64,000 bases of DNA from the IMG/VR virus record IMGVR_UViG_3300002895_000002, positions 149,117 to 213,116 of that record; one strand, 5' to 3'. Source of the DNA: a virus. Its lineage: Duplodnaviria > Caudoviricetes. The position numbers and the translations under genes are program-made. This document shows, in pieces, positions 31,901 through 63,612 of this stretch. Positions within the stretch are counted from its first letter, which is position 1, and the number at the start of each line of letters is the position of its first letter. The notes beneath the pieces are model-generated. The model worked only from the letters and a program-made list of their open reading frames with translations. It did no database searches and had not been told where the DNA came from.

Positions 31901-32007
31901 AGGTTGTGGTTCAGGGTGGGTCCAGCAAGGACACCGGGCCTATAGTAATCAGCAGTGGGGATAATGAAACCAGTGTATCATCATTATATCGATATATGCG
32001 TGGATAA
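28924..32007 (+). CDS. Tape-measure-like protein with glycine-rich hydrophobic segment and an RNNNPGN domain
   Basis: Coiled-coil N-terminal half, AAGG...AIVGEKGPELV motif, Gly/Ala zipper, LRNNNPGNIR. Confidence 0.7.
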   Translation: MAKNTLRASDLDTSKMNQTVAQQLLKAMQDVAAETKEVKTAMQDQVKIVNKSNQALVALGGASSDAKAHISAFGKKFKGMLDRGEESFGEALNRIKDDATLSSKAKKKLLDEELTFQKQYIKSRDKVFKIELDQFKQKQKYHEWEKAWNKKELKRRKVERLIEEKEWKRKKNRWLEETRRHNRDEEYYQQYQKRENQKKRDELEGKQHLFGKWGKALLQGHGPDKKKGFGGIVSQATQDYGSYGKLKLASVLGMHTMALVFKTPLFTMMATGWDRHLKEREVAARELDQYNEQLMREEFDRNERNQIREDEIQKRELEKGEYELKAARKRIDEENESLAFKKKILEHEWENVLEEKKLTQYKKIKRNQTSRTAEKEVEKVVLELPAHAAGGTMAGGPAIVGEKGPELVEGKKGAFVMTTTNLVRNLTKLNNGFGGIMSTVGRKQEPGKIFGSLAGRLLAKPMSLLNTLPAIKKTEDQQLIVLKAIQKGIADLKPKAAGPAAWVDTDKKAGGGAISLIKDLITNPEKVAAGMWAGSKILGTIGATKLGGKVLGKIGLGGFGAGAGAAGGAAAGAATGVAGKLGLKAGARLIPGVGIIASGLLSGGAALSKGEGWGAALGKGALSAVGTGIGQLLTGGIGGGVAGGLVGDYLGDMIFGKSAEASVEPTKGNELLDQKKKGNLQEEAYKAMIDLRDMGLPALMSMGQNADIQQKEALTVATGMKGSGPTPTELHAPPEENIVSPIVEDEKLSVWKRIGSWFGGGQAASTQLTPTVGGTAGGSRFVEIGGERRIGGTKNLRNNNPGNIRMSDHARKYGATTKDADGFAIFPTMKAGEDAQRDLLFKSNLGTSSPYGKGKAYKDKTIEEAIYTYAPPTENRSRQYADAMIRKMGGNRKLSDLSPQEQEYLRQSIADYEGKVMPRIEKATAAAPPGNNTGMNLTTKAVTKKKMMDASRVKEQAKAAYNNADTTIMAAVAAQKKAAEKKQPINVAVPPPQVVVQGGSSKDTGPIVISSGDNETSVSSLYRYMRG

Positions 32008-32751
32008 TCTTCGTTTATGTGCTTCACTCATTTTACGGCGAGTTTCATCAGAAATTGGCTTTCGGTTTCTAGCTGATTCATTTAGTTTTTGTTGATGCTC
32101 AACAGAACGAGGTTTGATTGGTTTTCCTTTTTTTGATTCACTTAGTTTTCTTCTATGTTCATCTGTTCTGGGTTCAAGTTTTCTACCTTTATTTGATTTT
32201 GATATTTTTCTTTTGGTTTCTTCAGAATGGGAAAATCCTTCTTTGGATTTTTTCATTCTTTCTAATGTTTCTTCAGACATTTTCTTACCTCTTCTAGCAT
32301 TTCCTATCTTTGCTTTAGTTTCTTCTGTATGTTTATTGATTTTTCCTTCTTCTTTCCTTTTTACCCAAGCATCTTTTAGTTTTTGTTTATGGTTTTCTGA
32401 TAATGGGCGTTTCATTTTATTTTTACTATCTTCTGTGTGATTATAATTCAGTCTCAACCAAGAGTAATCTTTAGAATTATATCTACCATTTGATGACATC
32501 ATTTTGAGTGCCATTGCTGTTTTATACCCCTTTTGTCCATTGTTTCTGTGTATTCTGGCTAAAAGCAGATGAGCAAGGAAGTGCTCACGTAAAGGAAGGT
32601 TGACTCTGTTCCATGAGCCATGTATATCTTCTATTCCATCAATTCTTGCGAACGACTTAGGAATAATATGATGATCTTCAGTTTGCTTCTTGATTTTGGG
32701 AGTGTTACGATTGCGTTCGATGATACGGTCGTAGATTGCTTGGTAGTCCAT
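31984..32751 (-). CDS. HNH homing endonuclease with NUMOD3-like repeats (family member 1)
   Basis: EDHHIIPK..WNRVNLPLREHFLAHLLLARI; repeated H(S/T)EETKxKI; AT-rich. Confidence 0.9.
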   Translation of the reverse strand: MDYQAIYDRIIERNRNTPKIKKQTEDHHIIPKSFARIDGIEDIHGSWNRVNLPLREHFLAHLLLARIHRNNGQKGYKTAMALKMMSSNGRYNSKDYSWLRLNYNHTEDSKNKMKRPLSENHKQKLKDAWVKRKEEGKINKHTEETKAKIGNARRGKKMSEETLERMKKSKEGFSHSEETKRKISKSNKGRKLEPRTDEHRRKLSESKKGKPIKPRSVEHQQKLNESARNRKPISDETRRKMSEAHKRRLSTHISI

Positions 32752-32768
32752 GACGGTTTCTCCTTACC

Positions 32769-32854
32769 GATAAATAGATGTGAACGGGGACAGCAGTTTC
32801 TCCACTGTTGATCGTCTACGCCAATAGCGATCTAACCCGTCTCATATATTTATC
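32769..32854 (+). ncRNA. Putative HEG-associated three-way-junction RNA, copy 1, including flanking convergent late promoters
   Basis: Covarying stems shared with the copies at 44127 and 57277. Confidence 0.7.
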
Positions 32855-43496: not shown

Positions 43497-44114
43497 CATT
43501 TGTGCTTGCATTTTTCACCGTGCCATCTTCCAAATGATCCGGGTTCACATGCTTTGCCACAGTATTTGCATATTCGTTTTGGTACTCTTTGTTTTCCTGA
43601 GATAATGTTATCTATATGTGATTTTGGTAATTTTTGTTCTTCATACGAATACTAGCTGCTGTTTTGAATTCATCAGACATTGATTTGCCTTTATTCCAAG
43701 AAGGTCTTCCTTTTCTAGTAATAGACATTTTTTGTTTGGTTTCTTCTGAGGCTTTTCTATTTTTCGCTTTTTTGATATCCGCTGTTTGGTTTCTTCTGAG
43801 TGAGAATAGTTTAGTTTGAGCCAAGTATATTTTCTAGAATTATATCTACCATTTGTAGACATCATTTTGAATGCTTTTGCCATTCTTGGGCCCTTAGCTA
43901 TATGACCTCGCCATATACGGGCAAGAAGCAGATGGGCGATGAAATGTTCACGCAAAGGAAGGTTGACTCGATTCCAGGAACCGTTAATATCTTGAATTCC
44001 ATCAAGCTTTGCGAATGAACGAGGGATGATGTGATGGTCTTCCGTTTGTTTCTTGATCCTGGGAGTGTTTCTGTTTCGTTTGATGATGCGGTCGTAGATT
44101 GCTTGGTAATCCAT
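43497..44114 (-). CDS. HNH homing endonuclease (family member 2), broken by two homopolymer indels
   Basis: N-terminus nearly identical to the 32751 gene. Adding one A at the runs 43768-43773 and 43631-43635 restores NUMOD3 repeats and a C-terminal CKYC...WHGEKC finger. Confidence 0.8.
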
Positions 44115-44126
44115 GACATTCTCCCT

Positions 44127-44219
44127 GATAAATAGATGTGACCGGGACAGCGGAGATATTCTCCCCTCCGTTGGCTGTCGACCCCCATCGCAGCCTTACC
44201 GGTTCCATTCTTATTTATA
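44127..44219 (+). ncRNA. Putative HEG-associated three-way-junction RNA, copy 2
   Basis: Covarying stems, conserved GACAG/TT/TTA junction segments, flanking convergent late promoters. Confidence 0.75.
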
Positions 44220-44225
44220 AATCTA

Positions 44226-44254
44226 TTGACATTATCAAGAAAAGAACATATAAT
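44226..44254 (+). promoter_or_regulatory. Consensus sigma70 promoter
   Basis: TTGACA-N17-TATAAT. Confidence 0.9.
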
Positions 44255-44535: not shown

Positions 44536-44668
44536 ATGGAAGAGAAACCCTACATTTATCGAACTGCTCATTACCATCGCCATCATCGGCATTCTCGCCG
44601 CCATCATCATCCCTGCTCTTGCACCGGTCGGTAAGGTGATCACTACCGGTATCAGTGCGGCATTCTAA
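44536..44668 (+). CDS. Type IV pilin-like membrane peptide; needs a 1-nt correction in the first 5 codons
   Basis: TFIELLITIAIIGILAAIIIPALAPVGKVITTGISAAF* in the +1 frame relative to the ATG at 44536. Confidence 0.6.
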
Positions 44669-44795
44669 GGAGACACCATGCTAACTCTCGAATTATTGGC
44701 TGCTTTAGCCAAGACAGTTTCAATAATGGGCGGGGTTGGTATCATTCTTGCTGCTGTCAAAACTGCATTCTAAGGAGACACCATGCTAACTCTCG
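44660..44795 (+). repeat. 31-bp perfect direct repeat (44660-44690 and 44765-44795)
   Basis: GCATTCTAAGGAGACACCATGCTAACTCTCG occurs twice, 105 bp apart. Confidence 0.95.
44678..44773 (+). CDS. 31-aa hydrophobic peptide
   Basis: AAGGAG RBS; MLTLELLAALAKTVSIMGGVGIILAAVKTAF. Confidence 0.55.
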   Translation: MLTLELLAALAKTVSIMGGVGIILAAVKTAF

Positions 44796-45238
44796 GAACA
44801 CTGTTTGCACTCATCCTCATCGGTCATCTCATCGGCGACTACTTTGTTCAAACCGAGTACCAGGCCACAACCAAGAAGTTTCCCTGTACTGAAGGGCATC
44901 TCGCTTGTGCCATCCACTGCCTCACCTACTCGTGCACTGTGGTAGCTACCATCATGATCCTCGGGAAGTGGCTCTGTGACATCGACATCAGCTTCTACCA
45001 GCAGCTTGCCACGTTCGGTCTGGTCTATCTCAGCCATTACCCATTCGACCGAACCAACATCATCGGCAAGCTCATGGCACTAAAAGGTCTCGTCAAGCCG
45101 CCGGTGCTCGACATGAAGAACAGCACGAGCCCGAAGGACATCCTGGATGTCACCAAGTACTTCGTGGTGTACGTCGTGGCAGACAACACGGCTCATCTCT
45201 TCTTCATGACACTCTTCCTCGGCTTCCTGCTTCTGTAA
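44783..45238 (+). CDS. DUF3307-like membrane protein
   Basis: GHLIGDYFVQT, HC..Y, SHYPFDR, DNTAH. Confidence 0.75.
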   Translation: MLTLGTLFALILIGHLIGDYFVQTEYQATTKKFPCTEGHLACAIHCLTYSCTVVATIMILGKWLCDIDISFYQQLATFGLVYLSHYPFDRTNIIGKLMALKGLVKPPVLDMKNSTSPKDILDVTKYFVVYVVADNTAHLFFMTLFLGFLLL

Positions 45239-53322: not shown

Positions 53323-53435
53323 AGACTTACGATAACAAACAACTTGGAGGTTATCATGAAACTCATTCCCGCTATTATAAGTAATGCCAAGTCGAACAGA
53401 GTACCTCAAAGTTACCTGTTCTATTTATAATTTTG

Positions 53436-55553: not shown

Positions 55554-56657
55554 ATGCTCAACGTAGTGGAATACCTCAAGTCCGGCAAGACCTTCGCTGA
55601 TCTCGAAGCAGAGTTCGGCATCAAGTCCAAGCCGCATCCCTCCGAGCCGCTCGTCATTCTCAACTACGACCAGATCGAATCTCCCAAGACTCACCCGATC
55701 GTTCGGGAGTGCCGCGGTCTCGTCCTGCACTCCGAGACATTCGACGTTGTTGCCAAAGGTTTCGACCGCTTCTTCAACGAGGGTGAGGCTTACGAGCTGA
55801 CCAAGGACTTCGACTGGACCCGCCCGGTGGATGTCCGCACCAAGGAAGACGGTTCCTACATCAACCTCTTCAGGTTCGACGAGAAGGTCTTCATCACCAC
55901 CCGTGGTTCCTGGGCTGACGGTGAATGTGGCTTCTCCGGGAAGACCTGGGCCGAGATCGTGCTGGAACTCTTCCCATCTCAGCTCAACCCAGCTGACATC
56001 CCGCCCGGCGTGAACATGATCTTCGAGCTTTGCACCGTGCACAACAAGGTAGTCCGCTCCTACCCTGAGCCGAAACTGGTACTCCTCGGCATCACCATTC
56101 ATGGTGTGGAGATGGATCCGATGGAGGTGGATGCTTTTGCGTTTACTTGGGATATTTCCCGCCCTGAAAAATTCCTGTGTGGATCCATTGAAGCAGTCCA
56201 GGAACTAATCGGCGAGAAATCTGCCAATGATCCTACCTGGGAAGGTCTGGTTCTCCGTGATGCCAACGGGATGCGCCTGAAGGTCAAGTCTGCTACCTAC
56301 GTGGCTCTGCATCACATGAGAGGCGAAGGTGATAACTTGTTCAATCCCAAGTACATCATCCCCTTCATCCTCAAGGGCGAATGTGAAGAGGTTCTCACCT
56401 ACTTCCCGGAGATCGAGGAGAAGCTGAATGAGGTCGGTGAAGCCGTCGGTGCTCTTTGGCTTGAACTCAGCCAATACTTCTCCAAGGTCGGCTCCCAGGG
56501 CATCACCGACCAGAAGGAGTTCGCTCTGGCCGTGAAGGACTGCCGCTTGTCCTCCATCCTCTTCCGTCTGAAAAAGGAGAACCGCCTGACTTTCAAAGAG
56601 CTCGATGCAGAGTTCCGCTCCGACCCGGTGAGGATCCACAAGATTCTCTACCGGTAA
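55554..56657 (+). CDS. rnlA: RNA ligase 1 (T4 RnlA family)
   Basis: LNYDQI, KGFDRFFN, KEDGS, FELC, EGLVL, KVKS..Y. Confidence 0.9.
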   Translation: MLNVVEYLKSGKTFADLEAEFGIKSKPHPSEPLVILNYDQIESPKTHPIVRECRGLVLHSETFDVVAKGFDRFFNEGEAYELTKDFDWTRPVDVRTKEDGSYINLFRFDEKVFITTRGSWADGECGFSGKTWAEIVLELFPSQLNPADIPPGVNMIFELCTVHNKVVRSYPEPKLVLLGITIHGVEMDPMEVDAFAFTWDISRPEKFLCGSIEAVQELIGEKSANDPTWEGLVLRDANGMRLKVKSATYVALHHMRGEGDNLFNPKYIIPFILKGECEEVLTYFPEIEEKLNEVGEAVGALWLELSQYFSKVGSQGITDQKEFALAVKDCRLSSILFRLKKENRLTFKELDAEFRSDPVRIHKILYR

Positions 56658-57264
56658 AAAGTAGTTGACACCAAGGCATCACCGTGTTTTTTTCTTTACA
56701 ATTTTCATAATGATATCGTTTCATATTACCGCAACCGCCAATTTTGCCACAATAAGGGCATTTTATTTTATCGAATGTTTTTCCTTTTGAACTTTCACTG
56801 ATTTTTCGTTTTGTTTCCTCGGATCTAGGTATACCCCTCGGAGTTTTATCTGAAATTATTTTTGCTTTACTAATTTTTCGTTTTGTTTCTTCGGATCTTG
56901 GACCTTTACCACGTCTTATCAGACTCATTTTATTTTTGGTTTCATCTGATAACTTGTAAGATAACTTTATCCAAGCATAGTTTTTAGAAGTATACCAACC
57001 ACAGTTAGCCATTTGACGAAAGGCCCGAGCCATTTTAGGACCTTTGACTTTATGCCCTCTCCATATACGAGCGAGAAGCAAATGAGCAATGAAGTGTTCA
57101 CGATGTGGCAGATGAACAATGTTCCAAGATCCGTTGATGTCTTCTATCCCATCGAGCTTCGCAAATGACTTTGGGATGATATGATGCCCGTTGGTTTGAA
57201 ACTTGACTTTGGAATGATCTTTGTACTTTGAAATGAGCTGATTGTAGATAGACTGGTAATTCAT
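56593..57264 (-). CDS. HNH homing endonuclease (family member 3) with NUMOD3 repeats and a C-terminal Cys/His finger
   Basis: HHIIPK..WNIVHLPHREHFIAHLLLARIW, RSEETKRKIS x2, CPYCGK...YHYENC. Confidence 0.9.
   Translation of the reverse strand: MNYQSIYNQLISKYKDHSKVKFQTNGHHIIPKSFAKLDGIEDINGSWNIVHLPHREHFIAHLLLARIWRGHKVKGPKMARAFRQMANCGWYTSKNYAWIKLSYKLSDETKNKMSLIRRGKGPRSEETKRKISKAKIISDKTPRGIPRSEETKRKISESSKGKTFDKIKCPYCGKIGGCGNMKRYHYENCKEKNTVMPWCQLLFTGRESCGSSPGRSGTLHRAL
56665..56687 (+). promoter_or_regulatory. Orphaned -35 box and spacer, with the -10 box replaced by the HEG 3' end
   Basis: AAAAAGTAG-TTGACA-N17 ending ...TGT like the other promoters, then a T run instead of a -10 box. Confidence 0.55.
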
Positions 57265-57276
57265 GACAGTTCCCTT

Positions 57277-57369
57277 GATAAATAGATGTGACGAGGACAG
57301 CAGGGTTGTTCCCTTCTCTGTTGGTCGTGTGTTCCCGCACCGACCTTACTCGTTCCATTCTTATTTATA
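57277..57369 (+). ncRNA. Putative HEG-associated three-way-junction RNA, copy 3
   Basis: Covarying stems; a G-U pair on the + strand. Confidence 0.75.
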
Positions 57370-59612: not shown

Positions 59613-60578
59613 ATGGCATGTATAAAGTGTAGAAGTGAAGAGAAATCAGGCAAACAAGGTGACCGGCGTTGTCCAAATTGTGGTTATCGCCCATCACCAT
59701 ATGAATGTAATATTGAAAAATATGGCAAAGAAGAAGCAGATAGATTATTAGAAATAACAAAAGAAAAAATGAGAAACAGAAAACCAACAATGAAAGGAAA
59801 AACAGTTTACCAATGTTGGTTAGAAAAATATGGCAAAGAAGAAGCAGATAGATTATTATCACAAATGAAAAACAAACAATCAGAAAGAAGACAAGGAGAA
59901 AATAACCCATTCTTTGGAAAAAAACAAGATAAAGAAAAATTAAAAAAAGCACAAGCAAATAGAAAAAAAGAATCATATCAAACCGAAGATTTCAAAAATA
60001 AATGCAAAAGACTCGGTTCATCAAATGGGATGTTTGGAAAAACAGTTTTAGAATGTATGGAAGCAAAATATGGTATAGAGGAAGCAAAAAAAAGATGGAC
60101 AGAACAAAATAAGAAAAAAGCAAGATATGGTTCAGATAACGGACAATTCGGAAAACCAGCGCCTATGGGATCCGGAAACGGTTGGTCTGGATGGTTTTCT
60201 GGTTTTTACTTTCGTTCATTGCTTGAATTGTCCTTTATTGTTCAAAGTATCAAAAATGGTATAGAAATAAAATCAGCTGAATCAAACGATTATCGAATCG
60301 AATATTATGATAAAAATGGTAAAAAAAGAAATTATTTTCCGGACTATGTAATAAATGACGTAATATACGAAATCAAACCATATTCATTATTGAATACGGG
60401 TGATAATAAACCAAAATTTGATGCGGCTAAAGAAAAATTTGGACCAGAAAAATTTATCATTCTTACTGAAAAAGAAATTGACAAACTACCCGATGATGTA
60501 ATAAAATTGATGTATATAAACGGCGAAATAAAATTTACCGAACGGTATAATAAAAAATTCAAAGAAAGATACTTGTGA
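59613..60578 (+). CDS. Free-standing homing endonuclease, PD-(D/E)xK TnsA-like
   Basis: YFRSLLE...NYFPDYVINDVIYEIKP; repeated LEKYGKEEA modules; late promoter TATAAATA at 59586-59593. Confidence 0.85.
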   Translation: MACIKCRSEEKSGKQGDRRCPNCGYRPSPYECNIEKYGKEEADRLLEITKEKMRNRKPTMKGKTVYQCWLEKYGKEEADRLLSQMKNKQSERRQGENNPFFGKKQDKEKLKKAQANRKKESYQTEDFKNKCKRLGSSNGMFGKTVLECMEAKYGIEEAKKRWTEQNKKKARYGSDNGQFGKPAPMGSGNGWSGWFSGFYFRSLLELSFIVQSIKNGIEIKSAESNDYRIEYYDKNGKKRNYFPDYVINDVIYEIKPYSLLNTGDNKPKFDAAKEKFGPEKFIILTEKEIDKLPDDVIKLMYINGEIKFTERYNKKFKERYL

Positions 60579-62832: not shown

Positions 62833-63612
62833 ATGAACTACCAGTCTATCTATGATCGGCTTATTGCCAAGTTCAAAGATCATCCAAAAGTCAAGTGTCA
62901 AACCAACGATCATCATATCATCCCAAAATGTTTCAAAAAGATTGATGACATCGAAGACATTGATGGACAATGGAACAGAGTGCATTTACCTCATCGTGAA
63001 CACTTCATTGCTCATTTGCTTCTTGCCCGTATATGGCGGGGACATAGAGCCAAAGGACCGATGATGGCGAAAGCATTCAACCGTATGTCTAACTGCGGAT
63101 GGTATACATCCAAAGATTATGAATGGATAAAGTCTTCATTAAATTATTCCCATTCTGAAGAAACCAAACAAAAACTTTCTGAAATCAACATTGGAAAGAA
63201 AATGTCAAAAGAATCATGTCAAAAAATGTCAGATTCAAGAAAAGGAAAACCAATACCCAAATTGGTAGGCAGAAAAAGTTCAGTTGAAAAGATACAAAAA
63301 CAAAAAGATTGGTATGCTTCATTATCAGATGATGAAAAACAAATAATGAATCAAAAAAAGAAAGATTGGTATAATTCATTATCTCAAGAAGAAAAACAGG
63401 TAATAAGTGAAAAGATAAGCAAGAGGAATAAACGTCCAAAAACAGAAAAGGAAAAACAGGCAACAAGAGAAGCAATAACAAAATATTGGGCCGAAAATAA
63501 ACACAAAGATCCTCGTGTTGGCAAACCTAGAAGCAAAGAAACTATTGAAAAAATAAAAGAAACAAAAAGGAGAAAACGACTTGAGAAAATTAGCGACAGT
63601 AAGAATAATTAA
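62833..63612 (+). CDS. HNH homing endonuclease (family member 4)
   Basis: DHHIIPK..WNRVHLPHREHFIAHLLLARIW, HSEETKQKLS. Confidence 0.9.
   Translation: MNYQSIYDRLIAKFKDHPKVKCQTNDHHIIPKCFKKIDDIEDIDGQWNRVHLPHREHFIAHLLLARIWRGHRAKGPMMAKAFNRMSNCGWYTSKDYEWIKSSLNYSHSEETKQKLSEINIGKKMSKESCQKMSDSRKGKPIPKLVGRKSSVEKIQKQKDWYASLSDDEKQIMNQKKKDWYNSLSQEEKQVISEKISKRNKRPKTEKEKQATREAITKYWAENKHKDPRVGKPRSKETIEKIKETKRRKRLEKISDSKNN

Follow-up and report, generated by a model that had tools for sequence, protein, structure and literature searches.

To persist, homing endonucleases, which are selfish nucleases, have to do almost no harm. Cis-antisense controls operating from convergent promoters are known from IS10 (RNA-OUT/RNA-IN), P22 (sar-ant) and lambda (OOP-cII), and in the type I toxin-antitoxin systems, such as hok/sok and SymE/SymR, an unstable antisense RNA is combined with a stable toxin mRNA and killing follows loss. 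In T4 the known brakes on homing endonuclease genes (HEGs) are cis hairpins with embedded late promoters, plus autorepression (PMC2988022). The hairpin hides the ribosome-binding site (RBS), as in I-TevI, segB and mobE, and late transcripts, which start inside it, escape; segD is the only one to lie antisense to its neighbours (PMC2988022). Very few antisense RNAs are known from T4-like phages (PMC2984593). The one reported for a HEG, CfrI of cyanophage S-PM2, is ~225 nt long, overlaps a HEG and psbA and has no known function according to the account of Millard et al. 2010 given in PMC2984593.

The element described here, a three-way junction of ~65 nt present in 16 copies in a 213-kb uncultured T4-like phage, constitutes a genuine RNA family that covaries strongly and has a loop matching the RBS of the adjacent HEG. 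A programmable form of antisense translational control is proposed for it on the basis of its sequence.

The phage genome and the distribution of the element

The DNA analysed, referred to as the window, makes up the final 64 kb of an IMG/VR virus record of 213,116 bp whose CheckV completeness is 100%. The phage is distantly T4-like, with a gp6-type baseplate wedge showing ~25% identity to T4-type phages. A profile search combined with a covariance model (R1) gave exactly 16 copies of the element in the genome, all in the same orientation and each adjoining a minus-strand nuclease gene at its start. When IMG/VR was scanned with a pattern and the hits were passed to the covariance model, 18 further distinct copies came to light in at least eight other contigs of 30-41% GC, one of which (G001, 204 kb) encodes a T4-type portal. 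Structural statistics were drawn from the 34 distinct elements, and comparisons of the loop with the Shine-Dalgarno sequence (SD) from the 33 with a recognisable adjacent start codon (16 from the genome and 17 foreign). Rfam contained no family at gathering score across the window and none at E <= 1 for four copies, and no description of the element was found in the published literature. DNA similarity to cultured phages was confined to the NUMOD3 region. Cassette borders were sought through HEG-less alleles, but comparison of the flanking proteins with five carrier contigs and IMG/VR found no close relative of the genome.

Three copies lie in the window. The region 57262-57315 covers the minus-strand HEG start, the HEG RBS and the first half of the structured element of copy 3. 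The HEG of this copy (56593-57264, minus strand) is an open reading frame for a 223-aa HNH-like protein with NUMOD3 repeats (Pfam NUMOD3, 6e-11; phrog_655 'homing endonuclease', 1.4e-33). That of copy 1 (31984-32751, minus strand) encodes a 255-aa HNH-like protein, also with NUMOD3 repeats, and that of copy 2 (43641-44114, minus strand) is truncated to 157 aa with an HNH-like N-terminus.

Fold of the junction

The fold runs in the order P1, J1/2 (GACAG), P2, UU, P3, UUA and P1'. In copy 3 the junction occupies 57290-57354 on the + strand (R1 96.1 bits, with covariation); P1 is formed by 57290-57295 with 57349-57354, followed inwards by J1/2 GACAG at 57296-57300, P2 at 57301-57320, P3 at 57323-57345 and J3/1 UUA at 57346-57348. 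The junctions of copy 2 (44140-44204, R1 98.0 bits) and copy 1 (32782-32841, R1 82.8 bits), both also on the + strand, were assigned from the model and the fold. Across the 34 distinct sequences pairing is found in 97.7% of cells, with both-sided, compensatory changes in 17 of the 19 pairs, whereas in a control with the partners slid by 1-3 columns pairing was only 32-50%. The bases left unpaired in the junction (GACA, UU and U-A) show no variation across phages that span 30-49% GC; GACA is present in 34/34 elements and the fifth base of J1/2 is G in 28/34. Minimum-energy folding pairs the final AG of GACAG with the UU that follows P2, so that ~3 bases stay free, and in four copies part of the anti-SD is predicted to be held in a small internal hairpin. 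Self-cleaving three-way-junction ribozymes were considered and rejected, there being no Rfam match and an apparent misfit of the GACAG, UU and UUA strands to the hammerhead core.

Internal pairs are nearly all Watson-Crick: the 579 cells comprise 560 Watson-Crick, 7 G.U (1.2%), 6 A.C and 6 other. A G.U bias is seen only at the terminal P1 pair (22/31), which overlaps the promoter and the start region. Counting G.U against A.C in the helices as a test of strand was uninformative for the internal pairs (7 vs 6). The junction folds equally well on the + and minus strands and, since its helices are almost free of G.U and without strand bias, the fold alone does not identify the functional strand.

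This scarcity of G.U and symmetry of the strands would also suit an element that acts as DNA, namely a hairpin or cruciform in single-stranded or supercoiled DNA that serves recombination, replication or cassette mobility, with the inverted TATAAATAG repeats as its ends and the loop/RBS repeat as a by-product. A flanking inverted repeat of 9-10 bp and a HEG-less scar at window 53394-53430 would fit as well. However, a direct repeat of 8-11 bp with its partner only 35 bp away would tend towards loss by slippage unless selected, the internal G.U wobbles in the loop:RBS match described below point to pairing of RNA, and the core of the inverted repeat is the phage's own promoter motif, beyond which the arms do not covary. 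A function at the level of DNA is thus considered very improbable.

Complementarity of the P2 loop to the cognate ribosome-binding site

The P2 loop of each of the 33 elements contains a complement to the SD of the adjacent nuclease gene and to the 3-4 spacer bases that follow it, the match comprising 6-11 contiguous pairs and the contact ending 0-9 nt before the start codon. In copy 3 the antisense of the HEG RBS (57269-57276) recurs exactly on the + strand as GTTCCCTT at 57308-57315, which is complementary to mRNA AAGGGAAC. The proposed target, the translation start region at 57265-57276 (minus strand), reads 5'-AAGGGAACUGUC-3' in the mRNA directly before the AUG and forms 8/8 pairs with the loop segment (GUUCCCUU, 57308-57315, + strand). 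In copy 2 ATTCTCCC at 44158-44165 repeats 44118-44125, and with one G.U wobble the anti-SD segment at 44155-44165 makes 11 pairs (GAUAUUCUCCC : GGGAGAAUGUC) with the start region at 44115-44125 (minus strand; mRNA GGGAGAAUGUC). In copy 1 GTTTCTCC at 32796-32803 repeats 32756-32763; here the loop spans 32797-32804, the anti-SD segment is GUUUCUCC at 32796-32803 and the start region at 32752-32765 (minus strand) reads AAGGAGAAACCGUC in the mRNA. The complementarity of these three loops to their cognate RBSs had been pointed out in an earlier, sequence-only reading of the window, and the sequences it gave proved correct.

That reading had treated the match as bipartite, with the GACAG linker as a second pairing segment. 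In copy 3 GACAG at 57296-57300 does repeat 57265-57269, and GACAG-GTTCCCTT at 57265-57276 is the antisense of mRNA AAGGGAACUGUC. The loop half of the claim stands, but the linker half does not hold as a general feature: GACAG is an invariant, partly paired junction strand with which the mRNA does not covary. The distance from SD to AUG varies, a perfect CUGUC occurs in only 3/16 genome copies, several copies have no match, and where J1/2 is changed to GACAU or GACAA the mRNA shows no compensating change.

For the loop the situation is the reverse. Independent variation of loop and RBS in homologs had been named beforehand as the observation that would count against the idea; the two were found to vary together in 33/33 elements from at least eight phage contigs. 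The spacers UCAC, CUAU, CAAU, CAAA, UAAG, UGGU and CCGU after the GGAG core are each mirrored in the loop. In a group of four related copies UUUCCU is followed in the loop by G, A, C and G, and AGGAGA is preceded in the mRNA by C, U, G and C respectively; a further compensatory example is given by AUAGCUCC : GGAGCUAU versus AUGGCUCC : GGAGCCGU.

Duplex energies tell the same story. For all 33 elements the mean was -12.4 kcal/mol for cognate and -6.9 kcal/mol for non-cognate pairs, for the 17 foreign elements -12.6 against -7.2 kcal/mol and for this genome -12.2 against -7.2 kcal/mol, with a permutation p < 1e-5 in each case. When the 16 genome loops were compared with 367 + strand start regions the cognate start ranked between 1st and 28th (top 8%) for every loop. 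The targets all have cores of the GGAG, GAGG or GGGA type and even non-cognate pairs reach about -7 kcal/mol, as would be seen if pyrimidine-rich loops simply resembled an anti-SD and matched any SD. Such generic chemistry or chance is hardly credible in the face of the gap between cognate and non-cognate energies, significant in two sets, the inclusion of variable spacer bases in the match and the high rank of the cognate site for 16/16 loops. The suggestion that the + strand HNH gene at 62833 might be a trans target of copy 3 was not borne out; the pairing of -6.9 kcal/mol equals the non-cognate background, and this gene is without an element of its own.

The strand on which the loop acts can be approached through the wobbles in the match. 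When G.U is allowed the runs lengthen in 12 elements, by 22 bp in total, and internal wobbles bridge further Watson-Crick pairs; when A.C, the wobble of the mirror reading, is allowed only single terminal pairs are gained, in 5 elements. The internal G.U pattern modestly favours RNA-RNA pairing of a + strand RNA against a minus-strand mRNA, the orientation proposed in the earlier reading. A caveat that must be applied to this evidence is that the wobbles trace to perhaps four independent events, and it is modest for that reason.

RNAcofold of the RNA with the start region was unsuited to the problem, as pairing of a linear target with the loop of a closed hairpin is a pseudoknot, and hybridisation and opening energies were used instead. 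Net binding after opening of both partners ranged from -8.0 to +2.7 kcal/mol (mean -3.6) and was close to zero for short loops of the UUUCCU type; such copies may need overlap of the leaders or a helper factor. No cognate complementarity was detected between the P3 loop and the HEG mRNA (p = 0.10). In folds of the sense leader the SD lies outside any conserved helix, with an unpaired probability of 0.25-0.75, and the sense P2 loop is identical rather than complementary to the SD, the sense leader being without an anti-RBS. The sense leader thus does not sequester the SD in cis, and a partner in trans would be needed for any control.

Promoter motifs and predicted transcript layout

A conserved ATAAATAG between the RBS and P1, with an inverted copy after P1', corresponds to the phage's own late-type promoter motif. 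The late promoter recognised by T4 gp55 is TATAAATA, with a start ~6-7 nt downstream (PMC2988022), and a TATAAATA late promoter is to be expected because of the gp6-like wedge in the genome and the T4-type portal in the 204-kb foreign carrier. In this phage the late-type promoter appears, from the distribution of the motif, to be (T/G)ATAAATA (for example at window 59587 and 62800). It occurs 68 times on the + strand, where ~6 would be expected per 8-mer, mostly 15-30 nt before gene starts and with about ten-fold enrichment before genes. Genome-wide on that strand GATAAATA (41 copies) is more frequent than the T4 consensus TATAAATA (27 copies). The minus strand has 23 occurrences in the genome, 16 of them inside elements.

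As a rule an element has one such motif pointing into the junction from the RBS side, P(+), and one facing it from the far side, P(-), about 85 nt away. In copy 3 P(+) is GATAAATA at 57277-57284 (+ strand) and P(-) is TATAAATA at 57362-57369 (minus strand), a putative HEG promoter that would place the junction in the HEG 5' leader. In copy 2 P(+) is GATAAATA at 44127-44134 (+ strand) and P(-) is TATAAATA at 44212-44219 (minus strand), back to back with a sigma-70-type promoter (12/12) at 44226-44254 on the + strand. In copy 1 both are GATAAATA, P(+) at 32769-32776 (+ strand) and P(-) at 32847-32854 (minus strand). P(-) is a perfect (8/8) TATAAATA in 11/16 copies and P(+) in 5/16; a P(+) motif is present in 15/16 genome copies, the exception being the copy at genome 21278, and in most foreign copies. 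If the motifs function as their resemblance to T4 late promoters suggests, the + and minus strands should both be transcribed from the base of P1, the minus-strand transcripts would carry the junction in the HEG 5' leader and the two RNAs would be putative cis-antisense partners over ~85 nt. The minus-strand promoter motif, and with it the place of the junction in the HEG leader, had gone unnoticed in the sequence-only reading. A plus RNA started at P(+), which separates the RBS from the junction, could not extend over the RBS and would be able to reach it only through the copy in its loop. For a T4-like phage, facing late-type promoters with a junction between them that folds on either strand make an unusual arrangement.

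Only the sense strand would matter if the junction were simply a HEG 5' leader that stabilises its mRNA, with the P2 loop displaying a second RBS as a standby site, a decoy or a protein site shared with the real RBS. The better conservation of P(-) is what this would predict, as is a junction that begins at the inferred 5' end of the HEG mRNA, 5' stems being known stabilisers, and the near-pure Watson-Crick helices fold equally well in the sense strand. Against this, the identity of loop and RBS runs 3-4 bases past the SD core into copy-specific spacers, which neither 16S pairing nor one common protein needs, it is only when read as antisense that the internal mismatches are G.U, the SD copy in the leader is without a start codon after it, and P(+) is kept in nearly all genome copies and most foreign ones. 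A purely sense role is considered unlikely.

No canonical terminator was found after the junction and + strand genes start 6-60 nt after most elements. The plus RNA may be simply the leader of the downstream late mRNA and not a discrete small RNA.

Partner nucleases and related loci

At least three families are represented among the element-linked nucleases, HNH-like with NUMOD3 (phrog_655), SegE-type GIY-YIG and LEM-3-like GIY-YIG, to which the foreign copies add zinc-finger HNH-like starts. As the partners span three HEG families the RNA is not tied to one protein and is better viewed as a general HEG accessory. Six of the 16 HEGs are broken (genome 6957, 61299, 101126, 108259 and 143167, and window 43641-44114) by an in-frame stop, frameshift, deletion or truncation, but all 16 RNA elements are intact and the loop:RBS matches beside the damaged genes are preserved. 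A use of the element independent of HEG control is therefore possible.

Pairing might accordingly be real and serve some purpose other than repression of translation, such as processing of the duplex (e.g. by RNase III), an action of the HEG mRNA on the downstream late mRNA, or timing or activation. The complementarity of the two RNAs over ~85 nt would lend itself to any of these, and so would the close spacing of the downstream + strand genes with no terminator between and the persistence of elements beside broken HEGs. The covarying contact, however, coincides precisely with the SD and spacer, where a translational block classically acts, and the P2 loop gave no sign of cognate matching to the region of the downstream + strand gene (p = 0.23). 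The probability given to these other purposes is low.

Several other loci are related to the element or lie close to it. At window 53394-53430 there is a nuclease-less scar that resembles the 3' end of copies 2 and 3, consisting of a GAACAG...CTGTTC hairpin followed by TTAC, TATTTATAA and a TTGACA early promoter, which suggests that cassettes can be lost by deletion. Outside the window, at genome 98400-98490, a 17th minus-strand HNH-like HEG (MDYQT..., 255 aa, intact) has the same face-to-face TATAAATA/GATAAATA pair with a spacer of only 28 nt and without a three-way junction. Two NUMOD3 homing endonuclease genes at window 59613-60578 and 62833-63612 are oriented as the phage genes (+ strand), each with a TATAAATA motif 15-25 nt upstream and without a junction element; the element accompanies only HEGs that are antisense to their neighbours. 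A simple hairpin at genome 70859-70907, also outside the window (GGTGCTTGGG/CCCAAGCACC, with GGGACA on top and flanked by GATAAATA and TTATTT), is matched weakly by the covariance model (26 bits) and is possibly related to the element as a one-arm form. Two foreign loci (L020 2731-2819 and L029 5201-5289) are variants of one foreign phage in which the nuclease start is ATT in the former and ATG in the latter, with element and RBS unchanged. A 105-bp tandem duplication at window 44660-44808 repeats the SD, start codon and first codons of a small + strand ORF (GCATTCTAAGGAGACACCATGCTAACTCTCG, 86% identity).

Proposed control of HEG translation

The account given a somewhat better than even chance of being correct is that a late antisense RNA blocks the nuclease RBS with its loop, both strands being transcribed, and so keeps the HEG low. 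The cassette is laid out as the HEG on the minus strand, its RBS, P(+), the three-way junction and P(-). The facing late-type promoters would lead to transcription of both strands from the base of P1. The minus transcript would be the HEG mRNA with the junction as its 5' leader, and the plus transcript, as a discrete small RNA or as the 5' leader of a downstream late mRNA, would carry the same junction in antisense with a copy of the anti-RBS in the P2 hairpin loop. This loop would pair with the cognate HEG mRNA over the SD and 3-4 bases beyond it, binding of the 30S subunit would be blocked and the level of nuclease would be low late in infection. The junction would be a constant scaffold and the loop a variable 'address', both travelling and evolving with each HEG, and the junction probably acts as a 5' stabiliser on both transcripts. 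Besides the broken HEGs, a point against this account is that complementarity between the plus RNA and the HEG leader is complete in any case, and an antisense effect would not strictly require the additional match of loop and RBS.

A more elaborate version, regarded as improbable, is that the junction is a protein-bound scaffold and the P2 loop a true guide, the whole forming a modular RNA-guided translational silencer that spreads with homing endonucleases. The invariance of GACA, UU and U-A in phages of 30-49% GC would then reflect a conserved phage or host factor that recognises the junction. If this were true the exchangeable loop would be able to guide that factor to the start site of any mRNA, and when a rival phage infects the same cell its matching nuclease might be silenced as well.

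For the antisense block itself, about ten distinct scaffold/target pairs in one genome, with more in other phages, provide a natural test set for the rules and specificity of loop-to-RBS repression, and the elements are possibly a set of mutually independent translational repressors.

Comparison with known systems

The proposed control resembles that of the IS10 RNA-OUT type in its facing promoter motifs and, if both strands are transcribed, in the use of a folded antisense RNA that touches the 5' region of an mRNA with a hairpin loop and blocks ribosome binding, the mRNA being that of a potentially harmful mobile-element protein. It differs in that the overlap covers the RBS in IS10 but would end before it here, where the RBS is reached through the separate copy in the loop, and in having a three-way-junction scaffold and many copies per genome, each with its own specificity. 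As in type I toxin-antitoxin systems, a small antisense RNA would restrain translation of an adjacent harmful protein, but here the part of the 'toxin' would be played by a DNA homing nuclease that a lytic phage encodes.

A c4-like antisense repressor had been proposed in the sequence-only reading. With c4 of P1/P7 and CI of P4 (Rfam C4) the element would share a folded phage RNA whose unpaired bases pair near an RBS that it does not overlap, and complementarity to the RBS is the part of the proposal that is supported. The two-segment part was not, as only the P2 loop covaries; there is one covarying segment instead of two and no match to the C4 model (E <= 1), and the promoter context and the targets, which are immunity genes in P1/P7 and P4, are different.

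CfrI also comes from a T4-like phage, where it is associated as an antisense RNA with a HEG, but the description in PMC2984593 mentions neither a conserved junction scaffold nor loop:RBS covariation. The T4 systems share with the present one a T4-like phage, TATAAATA late promoters within the device and, if the proposal is correct, limitation of HEG translation through the RBS. In T4 the anti-RBS is on the same RNA, whereas here the complement is on the opposite strand and the HEGs are antisense to their neighbours. Beside the cis hairpins and autorepression of T4, the element suggests a third HEG brake that travels with the nuclease gene and combines a fixed RNA scaffold with an exchangeable 8-nt address.
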